DNA of 35,146 nt from a virus. Lineage: Duplodnaviria; Heunggongvirae; Uroviricota; Caudoviricetes. The notes beneath the pieces were generated by a model, which was given only the letters and a program-made list of their open reading frames with translations, was not told the origin of the DNA and searched no databases. The translations under genes and the position numbers were made by a program. Location of the stretch: the IMG/VR virus record IMGVR_UViG_2909309443_000004. One strand, written 5' to 3'. Positions 2,796 through 29,164 of this stretch are shown here, in pieces (positions within the stretch are counted from its first letter, which is position 1; the number at the start of each line of letters is the position of its first letter).

Positions 2796-3737
2796 TTACA
2801 TAGATGTTTCGTTTAATTCTTCTCGACGAACGCTGTAAACGTCGGTGGCTTTTGCCAGCAGTTCGTCATCATCTGAAAGTTTTTGTGCAATGTATTTGTA
2901 AGCTTTATCCAGTTCGAAGACAGTGCTGTAATTCATCGCTGCGCTGGTAAAGGCCATCAGCATTTCTTCTGGATCACGGCTATCCGCTTTACGCGTTTGC
3001 TCATCAGGCTTTTTCACTTGTTTAGCGTTGATCAGACTGTTCATTCCCGCAGCAGTGGTCGTTTGCGGAGTAATGTCTCGCTCAACGCGCGGTGCCGTTT
3101 CCTGTAATTCGTCTGGTGTGTAGACGCCCATGATTACGTCAGGACAGTGCAGGCGAGACCAGCGTTTTGTCGCAAGGTATGCGAGTTGTTGTTTCGGATC
3201 ACTGGCCCAAAGTGTGGAGTTTCTTACCTGTGCTTGAGACAGCATTAACTCAAGCACTCGAGGTTGATCCTCGCCCTTCATGGTTGCCCATACGCGAACA
3301 CCGCAGCCTTCTTCGTCTTTTAGAGTCCAGCCTGGTGCGATATATGGATTGCCGTTTTTGGATGTTTTCTCAACAAACTTACCGATCACGCGTTCCCACG
3401 GCCCGAACCACTCGTAGTTGATGCGATCTTTTGTTGGCGACATCGTTGAGATAACTGCGTTTACTAATTGGGCTTCATAACCTAGCGTGCCGTTCACAAC
3501 ATGGGTTTTCTGAGCCACGGCAAACGGGTTCATTCCCCACTGCGCAGCCTGCATTGCCACGGCCATGCAATCAGCTGGTTTCCCGGCGAGGTGCGCCGGT
3601 ACCGTTACGCGGCTTTGCGCCATTACCTCGGCGAATTTCATCAGTTGGTTCAAGCCGTCTGGGCTGAAAATAGTTGCAGCAGTTCCAGCGATTGCTGTGT
3701 CTACTGGTGCGTTGATGTTTGCGATGTCGTTGCTCAT
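2796..3737 (-). CDS. recT: RecT-family single-strand annealing protein
   Basis: 313 aa from ATG 3737, which forms an ATGA overlap with the stop of the upstream exonuclease gene. RecT-like blocks AQWGMNPFAVAQKTHVVNGTLGYEAQLVNAVI and LAYLATKRWSRLHCPDVIMGVY. Confidence 0.82.
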   Translation of the reverse strand: MSNDIANINAPVDTAIAGTAATIFSPDGLNQLMKFAEVMAQSRVTVPAHLAGKPADCMAVAMQAAQWGMNPFAVAQKTHVVNGTLGYEAQLVNAVISTMSPTKDRINYEWFGPWERVIGKFVEKTSKNGNPYIAPGWTLKDEEGCGVRVWATMKGEDQPRVLELMLSQAQVRNSTLWASDPKQQLAYLATKRWSRLHCPDVIMGVYTPDELQETAPRVERDITPQTTTAAGMNSLINAKQVKKPDEQTRKADSRDPEEMLMAFTSAAMNYSTVFELDKAYKYIAQKLSDDDELLAKATDVYSVRREELNETSM

Positions 3738-4555
3738 ATGTACATATCCTGTTTGCGTGCCCACTCAGGGCGTTTAATGATTTCCACACCGCCCCATTCA
3801 TCATTGATGCGGCATTCGTGATAGGTATTCAGATCCCGGCGGAACAGAGCGTGCCCGGCATCGACATCCTGCGCATCCAGCTCGAACACGCGTACCGGAT
3901 ACCGACCACAATCAATGCTTTCGCTCACGGCAAGAAAGAAAAAACCATGCGGCTGACCAGTAACCCTCATTGCGCCTTCGCGGTACATTGCGTCCTGCAC
4001 GTGGTAGCGGAATTCCTCGATGTGGCGTGCAAAACGGTCCATATCTGCAACCTTTTTCACGTCGACGATTACGTTGTGCTCGTTCAGCCATTTGTCTGGA
4101 CGAATTCGGCACAACTCACCCGTCTCTTCATCGTTCCAGTACATTGATGCTTCGCAGTAACCAGGTGCTTCCAACATCCAGCGTGCCGCCGGATGAGCCA
4201 TTGCGCTATCACGCATCAGCTCCAGTTTTCGCCACTGCTCGACATCAAGTACCGTAATACCCATATCCGCCACATCACGAAGAAATGCTTCTTCGTCAGC
4301 TTTACCTTGTTTTGTCCGACGATCTAATTTCGGTGAAACGATGAAGCGTTTGTCGAATTCTCCAGGTTCCAGAAGCAGACAGTGCAATGCGGTTCCCATA
4401 TCCAGTGCAGACTTTTTCTCTTCGTCTTCTGGTGCTGCCTGAACCCATTTAAGAAGCGCCGGATTCTTGGCAACCATGTCCAGTTGCGACTTACTCACGC
4501 CGTCACCGGCGTGGTAGTCTTCGTTGCTGATGTCGAAATAAATTCCCGGTTTCAT
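3734..4555 (-). CDS. RecE-like PD-(D/E)XK exonuclease (DUF3799/YqaJ-type)
   Basis: 273 aa. N-terminal ISNEDYH..SKSQL, nuclease core with IRPD..IVDVKK, translationally coupled to recT. Confidence 0.78.
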   Translation of the reverse strand: MKPGIYFDISNEDYHAGDGVSKSQLDMVAKNPALLKWVQAAPEDEEKKSALDMGTALHCLLLEPGEFDKRFIVSPKLDRRTKQGKADEEAFLRDVADMGITVLDVEQWRKLELMRDSAMAHPAARWMLEAPGYCEASMYWNDEETGELCRIRPDKWLNEHNVIVDVKKVADMDRFARHIEEFRYHVQDAMYREGAMRVTGQPHGFFFLAVSESIDCGRYPVRVFELDAQDVDAGHALFRRDLNTYHECRINDEWGGVEIIKRPEWARKQDMYI

Positions 4556-5025: not shown

Positions 5026-5102
5026 TTACCGTTGAGGTAATAATTATGCTTATTTGGTTTGGTGTCAATAGATATGAGTTAAAAAAATTACCCGTAAGGT
5101 AA
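5026..5102 (-). promoter_or_regulatory. leftward early promoter with two operator copies (OL-like)
   Basis: TTACCGTTGAGGTAA at 5026-5040 and TTACCCGTAAGGTAA at 5088-5102 flank a minus-strand -35 TTGACA (complement of 5063-5068). An AT-rich -10 region lies around 5041-5047. Confidence 0.65.
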
Positions 5103-5159: not shown

Positions 5160-5744
5160 TTATTGTTTGCTTTTTTCGTTCTGGTTGATGACAAATTCAA
5201 TGTAACTTTCGATCTTTGCCTTCTCTGTTTCAGGTAACAATGCGTAGCGCGAGCGGTCATAGTTGATAGTCGCGGGGTCGTGCGGGTGAATCAGTAATTC
5301 ATATCCGTGACGCCCAAATGCGGATGCAACATTCTCCAGGGTGGAAATGGAAACGCTGACCTCATTGTTTAACAGGCGGCTGATTGTTACCTGGGCGACG
5401 CCGGATGCGCGGTGAAGTTTTCCCTGCGTTGAAAGGTCGCGGCTTTCGCTCATCCAGCGTTCCAGGTTGTGAGCCGCCAGTTGACCAATGTCGCTTGGTC
5501 CGACAGGCTGAAAACCTTCCTGAGAAAGCGAGCGATCGATATCAAGCCAGTTACGGGGTTTATTGGCGGCAGCTTCAATTTTTCGCGCAACCTGGTCGCC
5601 GATAACCTTCTTGCCAAGAGCCCAGCGGTTTACCAGATTTGCCTGAGTTCCAAGTTTTTCAGCCATCCGCGTCTGAACACCATTGAATTCACGGTCGATC
5701 AAGTCGTTGAGATTTTGCCTGCGGACGTCCTGGATACTTTTCAT
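5160..5744 (-). CDS. prophage repressor with two HTH domains and no S24 peptidase domain
   Basis: 194 aa. N-terminal XRE-type HTH (TRMAEKLGTQANLVNRWALGKK) and a second HTH (LHRASGVAQVTISRLLNNEVSVS). No Ala-Gly / Ser..Lys autocleavage module. Divergent from a Cro-like gene across a triple operator. Confidence 0.82.
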   Translation of the reverse strand: MKSIQDVRRQNLNDLIDREFNGVQTRMAEKLGTQANLVNRWALGKKVIGDQVARKIEAAANKPRNWLDIDRSLSQEGFQPVGPSDIGQLAAHNLERWMSESRDLSTQGKLHRASGVAQVTISRLLNNEVSVSISTLENVASAFGRHGYELLIHPHDPATINYDRSRYALLPETEKAKIESYIEFVINQNEKSKQ

Positions 5745-26304: not shown

Positions 26305-26748
26305 TTATTCTTCTTCTTCATCATTAAAAAGCGGATTGTTGTTTCCATCTGATGAAAGGAAAGGTATGTGTTCTCTTGAAAATCCAACAATGACAATTTC
26401 ATTATCATTTTTTGCATAATGAATGCATTCATTAGAATGCATTCCGCCAGGGTTGAAATTTAAGTTAATGGTATAATTCTTAAATGTGTTTGGATACCAT
26501 GTTGGCCCACAATGATAATGCCAATAATTCTCTTGCTCATAATTGTCTGAGCCTGGAATTTTATCATGGTTATCATCAACCCACGAGGGCTTGTTTTTTC
26601 CAACAAGCGCCCTTCCATTGGCAACATCCTCTAAAAACCTTTGTATGATTTTTATTTCATCATCAGTAAGGAAAGGTCCGTCTACAGCGAAAGGGGTGTT
26701 GCTTTCCCCATGTAGAAAACTATTAGATATTCTAATGTTAAACTTCAA
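26305..26748 (-). CDS. 147-aa protein of unknown function; weak by-eye resemblance to YafO-family toxins
   Basis: TTG start at 26748 with AGGAG 6-7 nt upstream. Visibly AT-rich. Segments YWHYHCGP..(25 aa)..HSNECIHYAKNDNEIVIVGFSREH recall the YafO pattern H-x-H-L..S-D-x-x-L-V-Y..H. Acidic tail NDEEEE. Confidence 0.55.
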   Translation of the reverse strand: MKFNIRISNSFLHGESNTPFAVDGPFLTDDEIKIIQRFLEDVANGRALVGKNKPSWVDDNHDKIPGSDNYEQENYWHYHCGPTWYPNTFKNYTINLNFNPGGMHSNECIHYAKNDNEIVIVGFSREHIPFLSSDGNNNPLFNDEEEE

Positions 26749-26768
26749 GGAAAACTCCTGATGTGCTT

Positions 26769-26936
26769 CTATTTGGAGCGAAATGCCGCCTTGAAGTCGC
26801 TAAAAGATGTTCCTGTCTGGTAAACCATATCCTTGTCGCGCTCTTTGCTTGCGCGACCAAGCATAACTTTTCCAATGACATCCCAGCATTGCTTGGCTTG
26901 TTCATTGTGCTGAGTACGATTTTTCAACGCTGTCAT
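26769..26936 (-). CDS. 55-aa protein, candidate partner/antitoxin of the 147-aa ORF
   Basis: Hand-translated: MTALKNRTQHNEQAKQCWDVIGKVMLGRASKERDKDMVYQTGTSFSDFKAAFRSK. Strong RBS AAAGGAGG 6 nt before the ATG at 26936. The stop is 20 nt before the TTG start of the next gene. Confidence 0.5.
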   Translation of the reverse strand: MTALKNRTQHNEQAKQCWDVIGKVMLGRASKERDKDMVYQTGTSFSDFKAAFRSK

Positions 26937-26948
26937 ATCGCGCCTCCT

Positions 26949-26992
26949 TTACCTTTAAGGTAATATTACGCGAATCTACATCACATCGCCAA
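26949..26992 (-). promoter_or_regulatory. operator plus candidate promoter of the AT-rich cassette
   Basis: Perfect TTACCTTTAAGGTAA (26949-26963) abuts a minus-strand -10 TAATAT (complement of 26963-26968). TTGGCG lies 18 nt upstream (complement of 26987-26992). Confidence 0.5.
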
Positions 26993-27005
26993 TGATTATT
27001 TTAAA

Positions 27006-27021
27006 GGCACATCCCTGTGCC
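27006..27021 (-). terminator. hairpin after the Bro-N gene
   Basis: Minus strand GGCACA-GGGA-TGTGCC followed by TTTAAAAT. The interrupted T-tract makes it weak. Confidence 0.4.
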
Positions 27022-27029
27022 GCCGCCCG

Positions 27030-27758
27030 TCAGAAGAACCCTGCCTTGTCGTTGATGTACTCCGCGTGGGTCTGGATATCACGCAGGCATTTGCTCACAC
27101 CGACGATGTAGCAGAACATGGTGGTCAGTTCCGCCGCCGCGCCCGATACGTCATGCCCGTCTTCCTGTAACTGGTTCAGCAAATTCATCAGCAGTGAGTT
27201 CTCCGTCAGGCCGAGAACACCAGACGGTGAATGAATCAGGCTACGGTAGCCGGGCTTCAGTGGGGCGCTGTAGGTTTTGTTCTCTATCTTCATTGCCTGC
27301 ATCACTGCTGATGCTGTGGCGTTGGCTACCTGGTCGGCAACCATCTTTATGCGTTCTTCTTGCGGGAGCGAGTTTTTAATGTAACTTCCGGTGCGGCGGA
27401 TCTGAGGAAGAACCTCACCTGTAACCCATTTACGAAAGCGGTATGGGATAGTGCCTGGTGTCACCGCATCGCGGCAGCGGAGGATCAGTGTGTAGAGGCC
27501 TGACTCGTTGATAATATTGGTTTCGCCTTGACGGCCTAAGTTAAATTTAGCCCTTTCATCATCATCAAGAGATTTTATTGACATAGTGGGGTTTGTCAGT
27601 TGAAGAGCTTTAATAACGTCTTTGGCAACAAACCAAGGATTAATCGCAAATCCAACTCTCCTCAGAGTTATAACGCTCAAACGCTTTACACATACTTTGT
27701 GTTGGTGCTGGAGGGCGTTCAAGGGCAGCCATGACTTGCTCCCAAACATCCTCTTCAA
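27030..27758 (-). CDS. Bro-N domain protein with an Ant-like C-terminal domain (start uncertain)
   Basis: Bro-N core NPWFVAKDVIKAL..ESGLYTLILRCRD..RFRKWVTGEVLPQIRRTGSY. The C-terminal 63 aa match the 28868-29125 protein at 28/63 identities (hand alignment). The track start is TTG 27758 and the first ATG is 27749, both inside the upstream RHH gene in another frame. The next in-frame ATG (27584) would cut the Bro-N domain. Confidence 0.7.
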   Translation of the reverse strand: MKRMFGSKSWLPLNALQHQHKVCVKRLSVITLRRVGFAINPWFVAKDVIKALQLTNPTMSIKSLDDDERAKFNLGRQGETNIINESGLYTLILRCRDAVTPGTIPYRFRKWVTGEVLPQIRRTGSYIKNSLPQEERIKMVADQVANATASAVMQAMKIENKTYSAPLKPGYRSLIHSPSGVLGLTENSLLMNLLNQLQEDGHDVSGAAAELTTMFCYIVGVSKCLRDIQTHAEYINDKAGFF

Positions 27759-27924
27759 CGATCAAGCGGCGATGTTCATTAATAACTGTTTCAGCTCTAA
27801 AAGTCGTAGACTCCATTACAAATTGAGATACGGACACTTTAGAAATAACAGCAGCTTCTTCGATACGGCGCTTCGCAGCTTCGGGCAGACGAAACTCGAA
27901 CCGCTCCTTTCTTACTGCGTTCAT
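27640..27924 (-). CDS. DUF1778/TacA-like ribbon-helix-helix protein (antitoxin-type) with no GNAT toxin partner
   Basis: 94 aa from ATG 27924 (AGGAG 5 nt upstream). RFEFRLPEAAKRRIEEAAVISKVSVSQFVMESTTFRAETVINEHRRLIVEEDVWEQVMAALERPPAPT is collinear by eye with TacA/DUF1778 antitoxins over the full length. Confidence 0.65.
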   Translation of the reverse strand: MNAVRKERFEFRLPEAAKRRIEEAAVISKVSVSQFVMESTTFRAETVINEHRRLIVEEDVWEQVMAALERPPAPTQSMCKAFERYNSEESWICD

Positions 27925-27988
27925 AACAACTCCTGAGCTAATGCTCACAGTGGTTTATACCACATAACGATATGCACGGTACGGGAAT

Positions 27989-28003
27989 TTACCGTACAGG
28001 TAA
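27989..28003. promoter_or_regulatory. operator copy upstream of the RHH/Bro-N genes
   Basis: Perfect TTACCGTACAGGTAA, 65 nt upstream of the RHH start. Confidence 0.6.
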
Positions 28004-28081
28004 TGATAAGCGCGAAGAAATATTAAAATCAACCTTATTTGGTTGATTGCGTTTAACGCTTGATCACCTGAAAGCAAGATA

Positions 28082-28096
28082 TTACCTTTAAGGTAA
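28082..28096. promoter_or_regulatory. operator copy upstream of the TM/zinc-ribbon gene
   Basis: Perfect TTACCTTTAAGGTAA, identical to the 26949 copy, 21 nt upstream of the ATG at 28117. Confidence 0.6.
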
Positions 28097-28116
28097 TGTT
28101 ATTGTGAGGAAAAGCA

Positions 28117-28845
28117 ATGGAAGTTTTCTGGATAGTTGTTGGTGTGGTTGCGGTGATTATTTACGTTATCAACCAGAACAAGACTAAGATCTCTGATCGT
28201 ACGGTCGTTAATCATAACAAAACGATAAAGACCGAAGATGGGGAGATAACGATTAATCGTACACAGGTGATAGAACACACCTCTACTCAGTTTCAAAAAA
28301 CTGGAGGTAATGCGCCTAATATTTCCGCACCTCCTGCTTATGATAGTGCGGTAATCCAGACATATTATAAACAGCAGGAGTTAGCAAAAGAGAGGCAACT
28401 GATTCAGCCAAAGCCGTTTACAACTGAGATTCCACCTGGAGTGTCAACGCGTCCGGCATATCATGGAAGATTCCCTGGTGATGACATATCGTCTCAGTCA
28501 TCTAAAAAAGCACCTCAGGCAATATCAGAGCCAGCAAGAATACCTTCTGTATCGCCGCAAAAAGAAGAATCAGCTAACAGAGTTTCAAGTGGTAGCAAGC
28601 AGTGCTTGCGATGCAGAATAAACCTTCCATATGAAAAATTCAGGAAATCGTCAAAAAATCCAGATGGATTGACTAAATGGTGTGCAAGGTGTCTCGATGG
28701 CCCAAAGAATACACGCCATATGAAGTGGTGCCCAATTTGTAATGTCCGCAGAAAACGAACCAGCTTTTACCCTAATAATCAAAATGCGGACGGCTTAATG
28801 GCATGGTGCAAAACGTGCTGGGATGAGCACAAAGCGAAACGATAG
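28117..28845 (+). CDS. membrane-anchored protein with two tandem Cys4 zinc-ribbon repeats
   Basis: 242 aa. N-terminal TM helix (VFWIVVGVVAVIIYVI) and a Pro/Ser/Gln-rich linker. C-terminal repeats CLRCRINLPYEKFRKSSKNPDGLTKWCARC and CPICNVRRKRTSFYPNNQNADGLMAWCKTC (C-x2-C..F..DGL..WC-x2-C). Confidence 0.75.
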   Translation: MEVFWIVVGVVAVIIYVINQNKTKISDRTVVNHNKTIKTEDGEITINRTQVIEHTSTQFQKTGGNAPNISAPPAYDSAVIQTYYKQQELAKERQLIQPKPFTTEIPPGVSTRPAYHGRFPGDDISSQSSKKAPQAISEPARIPSVSPQKEESANRVSSGSKQCLRCRINLPYEKFRKSSKNPDGLTKWCARCLDGPKNTRHMKWCPICNVRRKRTSFYPNNQNADGLMAWCKTCWDEHKAKR

Positions 28846-28867: not shown

Positions 28868-29125
28868 TTACCGGGTTTGTTTTCGTAATTGTTCGGCACA
28901 ATAGTCGAGATGTGTTTGCAGATCCCGCATAGACATCTGTGAGCTGGTGACGTAGTTAATCAGTGCAGTCAGTTCGGCAAGTGGGCCATCGACATTAAAT
29001 CCATCCTTATCGAGATCCCGGAGTAATTTCATCAAGTGCGATCCCTCCACCAGTGACCTGACGCCTCCCGGCGTGTGAATCCTTTCGGTAAATCCGTCTT
29101 CCAGTGGATAGTGATACCGCTGCAT
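28868..29125 (-). CDS. ant: small antirepressor-like protein (85 aa) behind a LexA box
   Basis: ATG at 29125 with GGAG 8 nt upstream (the track start at 29143 is a TTG). Paralogous to the C-terminus of the Bro-N protein. The function call rests on the SOS box, the non-cleavable repressor and precedent in related phages. Confidence 0.6.
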   Translation of the reverse strand: MQRYHYPLEDGFTERIHTPGGVRSLVEGSHLMKLLRDLDKDGFNVDGPLAELTALINYVTSSQMSMRDLQTHLDYCAEQLRKQTR

Positions 29126-29144: not shown

Positions 29145-29164
29145 AACTGTATATTTATACAGTA
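29145..29164. promoter_or_regulatory. LexA (SOS) box
   Basis: AACTGTATATTTATACAGTA matches the E. coli consensus TACTGTATATATATACAGTA at 18/20, with an intact CTG-N10-CAG. Lies 20-40 nt upstream of the ant start. Confidence 0.8.

Follow-up and report, generated by a model that had tools for sequence, protein, structure and literature searches.

DUF1778-type ribbon-helix-helix (RHH) antitoxin genes are normally followed by the gene of a GNAT acetyltransferase toxin. In the phage DNA analysed here (35,146 nucleotides in full, called the window in the following) such a gene is followed by the gene of a Bro-N protein instead, and the question is whether the two form a functional pair. The public annotation, a TacA antitoxin and then a normal BRO-N protein, readily suggests a novel antitoxin/effector module, and the first-pass annotation had left this reading open beside that of a recombination scar. 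Our comparison points instead to an orphan antitoxin gene and a 5'-truncated gene that stem from one plasmid-to-prophage exchange; its main value is thus corrective. The explanation we favour, with a probability of about 0.85, is a recent, lineage-specific recombination scar formed between a small Rop/ColE1-type plasmid carrying tacA-tacT and a phiV10/epsilon15-like prophage at two microhomologies.

The antitoxin gene and the gene behind it

The 94-aa ORF at 27640-27924 on the minus strand is tacA, an orphan, plasmid-derived RHH antitoxin gene of the DUF1778/TacA-AtaR-KacA type. Its classification as a full-length DUF1778 antitoxin had been made by eye and was borne out by the Pfam search, in which PF08681 (TacA1/DUF1778) matched with an E-value of 2.2e-19 over profile positions 1-79 of 80. 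In the PDB search the best solved relative was AtaR (6AJM/6GTO; E 1.8e-19, 6AJM over residues 1-84), and KacA (5ZGN) was also found. The ribosome-binding site AGGAG lies 6 nt upstream of the start, and the protein is identical to TacA of plasmid pRHB09-C18_5 in 93 of 94 residues. No GNAT gene follows tacA here; the downstream ORF encodes a Bro-N protein. An NCBIfam search with TacA, the Bro-N ORF, the small Ant protein described below and the plasmid TacT returned no matches, and none of the PADLOC defence models matched TacA, the plasmid TacT, the Bro-N ORF or the 55-, 147- and 242-aa ORFs nearby.

The Bro-N frame is open for 242 codons (27030-27758, minus strand), up to a TTG at 27758, and in its upstream part runs through out-of-frame tacA sequence. 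Pfam Bro-N (PF02498) matches this ORF with an E-value of 6.7e-18 and 65.5 bits, against a gathering cut-off of 25.6 bits. Comparison with a related prophage in E. coli 118UI shows that the gene proper, at 27030-27641, is a 5'-truncated Bro-N::Ant gene, homologous to residues 26-228 of an intact 228-aa protein (P0004). From AATCC onward the 118UI DNA is 100% identical to the gene in the window. The earlier observation that the Bro-N core begins exactly at the stop of the RHH gene proved correct to the base: the Asn codon of NPWFVAKDV (27641-27639) overlaps the TAA of tacA (27642-27640).

What remains of the Bro-N domain (27405-27641, minus strand) lacks strands beta1 and beta2. The Pfam score of the intact protein is 72.3 bits and thus higher than that of the clipped one, and PHROG alignments begin at residues 1-9 of the intact protein versus residue 40 of the clipped ORF. 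In the AF2 model of intact Bro-N::Ant, strands are found at residues 8-12, 16-23 and 26-30. F10, F12, E13, S14 and R19 are invariant across 36 homologues; all five are absent from the window, as are codons 1-25 altogether, the native start and the ribosome-binding site. Neither a complete Bro-N domain with its N-terminal beta-hairpin nor a translation start of its own is present in the window ORF.

The first-pass annotation had named TTG 27758 and ATG 27749 as the only upstream start codons. Both do lie inside tacA in another frame and have a poor Shine-Dalgarno spacing, but they are not the sole candidates; TTG 27722 and TTG 27680 are also in frame and likewise inside tacA. PGAP (NCBI) chose TTG 27680, which gives a 216-aa CDS. 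No usable Shine-Dalgarno sequence was found for the remaining in-frame Bro-N starts. Because a good ribosome-binding site is absent, which is the sole basis of this conclusion, the clipped gene is probably poorly expressed, with at best little product arising from weak internal start codons.

A remnant of tacT at 27596-27649 (minus strand) is recognisable from the plasmid annotation and the translation. It consists of the TTG start of the plasmid GNAT toxin gene, which GAGGAG precedes by 8 nt, plus 3 codons, and opens a 17-codon ORF in a frame other than that of Bro-N. Translational coupling from this start was considered and rejected, since the TTG is in the third frame and the ORF stops after 17 codons: a full Bro-N domain is impossible by this route, and only reinitiation at the in-frame ATG 27584, 11 nt beyond the end of the ORF, is conceivable. 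Such reinitiation could yield a protein of 184 aa that includes the whole Ant domain. A programmed frameshift from TacA into Bro-N was likewise rejected; the Bro-N frame is +1 to tacA, and by eye no slippery or prfB-like site is present at TGC GAT TAA TCC.

Plasmid donor, prophage recipient and their junctions

Alignment to related prophages had been proposed as the way to locate the junction, and 118UI together with the plasmid indeed placed both crossovers to the base. In E. coli 118UI this phiV10/epsilon15-like prophage occurs with the intact 228-aa Bro-N::Ant gene and without tacA, and its flanks are identical or nearly so to the window up to both junctions. The captured tract in between, defined by blastn and base comparison, spans 27637-28004 including both microhomology junctions, with a plasmid-only part at 27642-27986. 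In blastn it is 99.4% identical to CP057940.1 and 98.9% identical to 3.27-kb Klebsiella/Raoultella plasmids. One base (27807) differs from the plasmid inside the tract, and mismatches set in from 28005 on one side and at 27636/27629 on the other. In a sister genome of enterotoxigenic E. coli (ETEC; L009) the tract 28004-27637 is base-identical to the plasmid, and TacA agrees with that of pRHB09-C18_5 in 94 of 94 residues. Plasmids of the donor type occur in E. coli, Klebsiella, Raoultella and Citrobacter, have a size of 3.3-3.5 kb and encode Rop; their tacA overlaps the GNAT toxin gene by 10 nt (tacT start annotated at position 1324 of the donor plasmid, L006).

The left junction, ATTACCTGTACGGTAAAT (27987-28004, minus strand), is a microhomology of 17/18 positions in the three-way alignment, with the pattern ATTACCT(G/T)TACGGTAAAT. 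It pairs an operator-like palindrome of the phage (ATTACCTTTACGGTAAAT in 118UI) with a palindrome just upstream of the plasmid tacA. The pattern is present in intact phages as well as in the plasmid and is one of 11 TTACC-N5-GGTAA sites, where 0.62 are expected. The right junction, AATCCTTGGTTT (27630-27641, minus strand), matches in 11 of 12 positions according to the alignment and the base differences (AATCC(T/C)TGGTTT). Here the tacA stop and 5' end of tacT in the plasmid (AATCCCTGGTTT) are paired with phage Bro-N codons 26-29 (N-P-W-F). In sum, 339 bp of phage DNA are exchanged for a plasmid piece of 345-368 bp comprising an operator, tacA and the first three tacT codons.

Such an arrangement would result from a double crossover in which the 339 bp were replaced with about 345 bp of plasmid DNA. 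The left crossover would have taken place in the operator-like palindrome, just downstream of the promoters of both phage and plasmid, and the right one in the stretch around the tacA stop/tacT start that is similar to the N-P-W-F codons. Of the scar proposed in the first-pass annotation, the recombination and the clipping of the first Bro-N strands stand, but the direction has to be reversed: Bro-N did not replace a toxin beside a resident tacA; rather, a plasmid piece with tacA replaced the phage leader and Bro-N codons 1-25, and the toxin was never brought in. The phage encodes RecT (Pfam E 2.5e-44) and a RecE-C-terminal-like exonuclease (NCBIfam E 8e-92) at 2796-4555, and this pair could have catalysed the short-homology exchange, although sequence alone does not discriminate between RecET, RecA and an illegitimate mechanism.

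The identical tacA/Bro-N junction was found in 15 complete genomes and in two contigs, one from IMG/VR and one from a metagenome, which excludes a chance pattern. It also bears on the suspicion that the locus is a chimeric contig of plasmid and prophage reads. Small high-copy plasmids can misassemble and the junctions do lie in short repeats; yet the 15 chromosomes were sequenced independently and agree with the two contigs, and SNPs internal to the lineage occur within the insert, so that we give an assembly or annotation artefact hardly any credence.

Among 5,426 complete E. coli genomes, the tacA form is present in 15, and the intact leader and 5' end in 80. These 15 prophage copies were the only tacA-like DNA found in E. 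coli chromosomes. Isolates with the recombinant come from Bangladesh, the USA and Bolivia (countries seen), and all 15 genomes appear to belong to a single clone of O6:H16 ETEC. Within this lineage tacA has acquired two nonsynonymous changes and no synonymous one, A39T in the window, which alters an Ala shared with AtaR, and V59I in a different strain; the 2:0 ratio, from tiny numbers, is compatible with relaxed constraint.

Control of the antirepressors and possible roles of TacA

In the intact relatives the leader before Bro-N::Ant encodes an isrK-like RNA and a C4 antisense RNA, both recognised by Rfam, whereas an Rfam scan of the window yielded no RNA matches. The C4 loop of the relatives, CCTTTGTAG, is complementary to CTACAAAGG, which spans the Shine-Dalgarno sequence of the intact gene. 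These two RNAs control Bro-N::Ant in the relatives. A promoter-like site, TTGATT-18-TATCAT (28003-28032, minus strand), is conserved in 118UI. By its consensus match, which is no proof of function, it would drive the isrK/C4/Bro-N::Ant transcript in the relatives; in the window it reads into tacA.

The C-terminal part of the Bro-N ORF (27039-27278, minus strand) is an Ant-like domain homologous to the SPC32H antirepressor (5D50_E, E 1.2e-13 in the PDB search; phrog_450, E 5e-36). Its likeness to an 85-aa protein of the same phage, noted earlier, is significant in BLASTP, with 32 identities in 76 ungapped positions (E 2e-20). The 85-aa protein is encoded by a small SPC32H-type antirepressor gene, ant (28868-29125, minus strand; 5D50_E, E 3.5e-46), and is 87% identical to the annotated ant of SPC32H/SPC32N. 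The LexA control proposed for this gene agrees with a canonical LexA box, CTGTATAAATATACAG (29147-29162, within TACTGTATAAATATACAGTT at 29145-29164, minus strand), read from the sequence in front of it. Reading of 26800-28300 revealed no CTGT-N8-ACAG box upstream of the Bro-N::Ant ORF. Hence the notion of two Ant domains under different controls holds for the phage family, with LexA for one and C4 antisense RNA for the other, but in the window the second control is deleted.

The presumed target of both Ant domains is the product of rep, a homologue of the SPC32H repressor gene (5160-5744, minus strand; 5D50_A, E 3.5e-42). In SPC32H, Ant disassembles Rep tetramers, according to PMC9638917 and the PDB entries. 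TTACC-N5-GGTAA sites flank rep at 5026, 5088, 5800 and 5848; the palindrome pattern gave matches with a 5-nt spacer and none with a 6-nt spacer. The palindromes of this type in front of both Ant-domain genes are probably Rep operators. Upstream of tacA, GTACGG-N7-CCGTAC (27976-27994) and TTACC-N5-GGTAA, palindromes read by eye, are still present.

By the exchange the phage would have lost the isrK-like RNA, the C4 antisense RNA, the C4-masked ribosome-binding site, the ATG and codons 1-25 with their two beta-strands. In return it would have received a complete tacA, ribosome-binding site included, and no toxin, the tacT start plus 3 codons being left over. The second, C4-controlled antirepressor would be crippled, having no native start and two strands missing, and SOS induction by the LexA-controlled SPC32H-type Ant acting on Rep would be untouched. 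The now orphan tacA would be transcribed from the phage promoter, which Rep probably represses; an extended -10 element that has been kept (TGgTATAAA, 27954-27962) may be a second source of transcripts.

The module envisaged earlier, in which a recruited antitoxin-type RHH protein would act on the Bro-N::Ant effector much as an antitoxin acts on its toxin, by regulating it or by neutralising it directly, could draw on the co-transcription of tacA and the Bro-N ORF. Judging from DUF1778 biology, TacA probably autoregulates at GTACGG-N7-CCGTAC, and this autorepression would also lower transcription of the downstream ORF. However, the pairing is limited to one clone and stems from a datable plasmid insertion. 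The relatives with an intact Bro-N::Ant gene have no RHH gene and use isrK-like and C4 RNAs. Moreover, the C-terminal tail of TacA evolved for the GNAT fold and not for the Bro-N/Ant fold, and the downstream gene lost its start and its conserved N-terminus in the very event that brought tacA in. We consider such a module very improbable.

Another interpretation accepts the origin as a scar and adds a selected function: expressed TacA would be kept since it neutralises TacT-type GNAT toxins. The lysogen might in this way be shielded against post-segregational killing by small tacAT plasmids (anti-addiction), or the phage against TacT-based growth arrest; losing the second antirepressor would be either a side effect or a stabilising change in its own right. 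The tacA reading frame is undamaged, follows a good ribosome-binding site and encodes a protein identical in 93-94 of 94 residues to a plasmid antitoxin found beside a GNAT toxin. The recombinant, found in the 15 genomes and the two contigs, persists in several countries; it is therefore not very harmful, at the least, and might be under selection. Antitoxin genes that stand apart from toxins in other genetic contexts are common in Enterobacteriaceae, and orphan antitoxins have been proposed to be anti-addiction modules (PMC7192599). Yet the 15 genomes look like a single clone, so that persistence may be due to hitch-hiking, and a cognate tacT was found in none of the 5,426 complete E. coli genomes at the sensitivity of blastn. 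In addition, the changes in tacA are all nonsynonymous, the phage promoter driving it is probably shut by Rep in the lysogen, and TacA-like genes are very rare in phages (6 of 50,697 records). An adaptive capture thus appears rather unlikely. We also regard as improbable a more far-reaching proposal, in which expressed phage-borne TacA disarms TacT/AtaT-type GNAT toxins of small plasmids or toxins acting as abortive-infection effectors, and in which its autorepression at the hybrid operator has replaced the C4/isrK control of a shortened, active Ant protein made from ATG 27584.

Read as a recombination scar, the locus is an unusually clean case of a temperate phage capturing a gene through microhomology, with donor, recipient and both breakpoints known. 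The comparison also points to the normal architecture of this phage group, a LexA-controlled SPC32H-type Ant plus a Bro-N::Ant fusion under a P1-like C4 antisense RNA. The ETEC variant would then be a natural knockout of the second Ant arm and could be used to ask what role that arm plays.

Comparison with known systems

Like the antitoxins of the TacA/AtaR/KacA GNAT-RHH systems, the window protein matches DUF1778 over its full length, with RHH sequence at the N-terminus and a toxin-binding region at the C-terminus, and in the donor plasmids the overlapping toxin gene provides the GNAT partner. The window differs in that it has no toxin gene and in that tacA resides in a prophage, behind a phage promoter and an operator-like site. 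With orphan antitoxins and anti-addiction modules it shares an antitoxin gene that was parted from its toxin and placed in a new context, but in this case one can name the donor, the two breakpoints and the recipient sequence that was displaced. Compared to the Bro-N phage proteins (PF02498; phrog_130, phrog_245 and others), the core from NPWF on and the linker are identical to those of widespread prophage proteins, whereas the N-terminal FxFES...R...DG segment (beta1, beta2) and the native start are missing from the window ORF.

The immI region of phages P1 and P7 has the order c4 antisense RNA, icd, ant. The intact relatives (L005 and L001) resemble it in that the leader of their antirepressor gene carries a C4-family RNA (RF01695, 78-80 bits) whose loop is complementary to the Shine-Dalgarno sequence. 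They differ by an additional isrK-like RNA upstream of C4, and no icd-like ORF was seen between C4 and the antirepressor gene; the window has neither the C4 RNA nor its target. The Rep-Ant antirepression switch of the Salmonella podophage SPC32H (PDB 5D50/5D4Z) was reportedly described by Kim and Ryu in 2013. As in SPC32H, a Rep homologue and an 85-aa Ant homologue behind a LexA box are encoded in the window, and the Ant domain is found once more at the C-terminal end of its Bro-N ORF. Unlike in SPC32H, this second Ant domain is fused to Bro-N, stands outside LexA control and belongs to a gene whose 5' end has been truncated.

Origin of the tacA/Bro-N junction

The window is a phiV10/epsilon15-like (Uetakevirus) prophage with its best DNA matches to TL-2011b, HEMP4, phiv142-3 and phiV10. 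The tacA/Bro-N site belongs to its accessory region, which has the structural genes on one side and the tail-fibre gene on the other. tacA (27640-27924, minus strand) has an AGGAG ribosome-binding site and encodes a full-length DUF1778/TacA1 antitoxin of 94 aa. The by-eye assignment to DUF1778 was confirmed by the profile search (PF08681, Pfam, E 2.2e-19, profile positions 1-79 of 80); the closest solved structures are AtaR (6AJM/6GTO, E 1.8e-19) and KacA (5ZGN).

In E. coli strain 118UI the same gene neighbours surround an intact 228-aa Bro-N::Ant gene (MTANVTPSVFHFESEATIRAIVIDGNPWFVAKDV...) without tacA. Pairwise alignment with this prophage located both ends of the junction: the window is identical downstream from AATCCTTGGTTT, nearly identical upstream of ATTACCT(G/T)TACGGTAAAT and unrelated in between. 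Small plasmids of E. coli, Klebsiella, Raoultella and Citrobacter (3.3-3.5 kb, non-mobilizable) match the unrelated segment at 98.9-99.4% identity. In plasmid pRHB09-C18_5 it is the tacA of a tacA-tacT operon adjoining rop, with the GNAT toxin gene overlapping the tacA end by 10 nt. By three-way alignment and comparison of single bases, the tract shared with the plasmid spans 28004-27637 and ends on both sides inside plasmid/phage microhomologies (left 17 of 18 bp, right 11 of 12 bp). M9682-C1, a sister genome, has the plasmid sequence unchanged over this tract, and the window has a single difference, base 27807, giving TacA A39T. The phage lost 339 bp (118UI prophage sequence L005, 3193-3531) and gained about 345 bp, that is, an intact tacA without the toxin. 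Of the two readings in the first-pass annotation, the recombination scar thus stands, but its direction has to be corrected: a plasmid tacA entered the phage, which never received the toxin. The other reading, a functional module of RHH protein and effector, found no support.

Megablast with window 27450-28120 against 5,426 complete E. coli genomes found the full tacA/Bro-N arrangement in only 15, all ETEC strains and several labelled O6:H16, while many others, 118UI among them, matched the flanks alone; the intact leader and 5' end are present in 80 complete genomes. IMG/VR and the metagenome collection each contain a single copy of the exact 30-nt junction, and in both the operator stands as far away as expected. 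Among the E. coli genomes tacA-like DNA is confined to the 15 prophage copies, and no cognate tacT was detectable by blastn in any of the 5,426. TacA-like genes are also very rare in phages: of 50,697 records 6 have one, none above 43% identity, and most of these six are phage records of ~108 kb. Within the ETEC set both tacA changes are nonsynonymous and none is synonymous (A39T, window 27807, in E8 and the window; V59I, 27747, in E2386), numbers too small for a selection test. Orphan antitoxins have been discussed as possible anti-addiction or anti-toxin factors (PMC7192599), and the captured TacA might conceivably be one.

A double crossover at the two microhomologies would be the simplest event. 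By a rough calculation for a 3.4-kb plasmid and a 40-kb phage, chance matches of such length are expected in the order of 0.2 each, which suggests that such microhomologies are not improbable by chance. The phage RecT and RecE-C-terminal-like (DUF3799/PDDEXK) exonuclease, encoded side by side at 2796-4555 on the minus strand (RecT Pfam E 2.5e-44; exonuclease E 8e-92), could promote exchange at short homologies. All components belong to known families and this is not a new kind of system; it is a fully traceable example of plasmid-to-prophage gene capture.

Two Ant domains and candidate Rep operators

The 85-aa product of the small ant gene (28868-29125, minus strand) is the antirepressor Ant of Salmonella phage SPC32H (PDB 5D50 chain E, E 3.5e-46), with 87% identity to the annotated ant gene of SPC32H/SPC32N. 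The C-terminal 76-80 residues of the Bro-N ORF align ungapped with it (32 of 76 identities, E 2e-20) and match 5D50 chain E as well (E 1.2e-13). Therefore the phage carries two Ant domains, as had been proposed from the C-terminal similarity. The postulated LexA control of small ant also has its site, a canonical box CTGTATAAATATACAG ahead of the gene at 29147-29162. The matching repressor Rep is encoded at 5160-5744 on the minus strand (5D50 chain A, E 3.5e-42).

With one mismatch allowed, a pattern scan found 11 TTACC-N5-GGTAA palindromes (0.62 expected), at 5026, 5088, 5800, 5848, 6185, 8131, 8193, 26949, 27989, 28082 and 29202. The sites at 5026, 5088, 5800 and 5848 flank rep; in the accessory region each transcription unit is preceded by one (26949, 27989, 28082 and 29202), both antirepressor genes included. 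This placement makes them probable Rep operators. In the window the phage promoter-like site TTGATT-18-TATCAT (28032-28003) survives together with the operator arms, which suggests that tacA and the clipped gene are probably co-transcribed and repressed by Rep in the lysogen. Some constitutive transcription of tacA might also come from an extended -10 element that is retained (TGgTATAAA). SOS induction via the LexA-controlled small Ant should be unaffected by the swap.

An operator-like palindrome precedes a pair of genes for 55 and 147 aa (26305-26936, minus strand; phrog_8607 and phrog_5954, function unknown), which have no Pfam or PADLOC match. As TL-2011b has a small ORF and a YafO-family toxin in this position, the pair may form a further toxin-antitoxin-like cassette. 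The 242-aa product of 28117-28845 (plus strand; phrog_6762) has a hydrophobic N-terminus and a Cys-rich C-terminus with weak resemblance to Stc1 and endonuclease VII/HNH zinc motifs; in TL-2011b its equivalent is only a misc_feature 'similar to hypothetical protein', with no CDS annotated. Just upstream of the region, TL-2011b has an additional P22-type immI cassette (Arc-like repressor, Ant, sar antisense RNA; L001 263-330) and thus three antirepressor-type genes.

The clipped Bro-N::Ant gene

The Bro-N ORF (27030-27758, minus strand; Bro-N match E 6.7e-18) has its NPWFVAKDV core beginning at codon 27641-27639, overlapping the tacA stop (27642-27640) just as first noticed. TTG 27758 and ATG 27749, with their poor ribosome-binding sites, are not the sole upstream starts, since TTG 27722 and TTG 27680 had been missed; all four fall within tacA, out of its frame, and lack a usable Shine-Dalgarno. 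PGAP chose TTG 27680 (216 aa).

The 25 lost codons matter, because invariant residues and predicted beta-strands are located there. In 36 homologues (67-86% identity) F10, F12, E13, S14 and R19 never vary. The intact protein, modelled with AlphaFold2 (pLDDT ~78-91 in the Bro-N domain), has predicted beta-strands at residues 8-12, 16-23 and 26-30, of which the window ORF would retain the third only. The Bro-N Pfam score falls from 72.3 bits for the intact protein to 65.5 bits, and PHROG alignments start only at residue 40, where those of the intact protein start at residues 1-9. Most likely the clipped gene is untranslated or poorly translated. A tacT remnant remains, with GAGGAG 8 nt upstream of its TTG start (27649-27647, minus strand): a 17-codon ORF in the third frame, ending at 27596, 11 nt before the in-frame ATG 27584. 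Ribosomes leaving it could reinitiate there and yield a product of 184 aa that has the whole Ant domain.

In phiV10 (L002 2607-3191) this gene has decayed a second time, independently: a 16-nt deletion shifts the frame and destroys the C-terminal Ant domain, leaving 194 aa that end ...LLMNRTTGMMYQARRRS. In phiv142-3 (L003 2333-2989) a different N-terminal domain, unaligned to the Bro-N core, is fused to the same Ant domain with its breakpoint inside the linker, a sign of domain shuffling at the locus.

RNA control in the intact relatives

In 118UI and TL-2011b, Rfam finds an isrK-like RNA (RF01394, 77 bits) followed by a C4 antisense RNA (RF01695, 78-80 bits) in the leader of the intact gene (L005 3316-3497; L001 3195-3380); the whole window has no Rfam match at gathering thresholds. 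In 118UI a 9-nt C4 stretch, CCTTTGTAG, is exactly complementary to CTACAAAGG, which lies just upstream of the Bro-N::Ant ATG and covers its Shine-Dalgarno. Many public calls for the intact locus (P0001, P0005, P0021 and others) are 279-aa ORFs that start upstream and run through the C4 region; they look like over-extended versions of the 228-aa protein.

With the swap the phage thus lost both RNAs and the C4 target, along with the start codon and the 25 codons, and the window is probably a natural knockout of the C4-controlled second antirepressor. For this phage group we know of no description of a P1 immI-like control beside an SPC32H-type LexA/Ant switch. In the immI region of P1 and P7, a C4 RNA masks the ribosome-binding site upstream of ant. 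The pairing of C4 with the Bro-N::Ant Shine-Dalgarno follows the same logic in the intact relatives, the window being without it.
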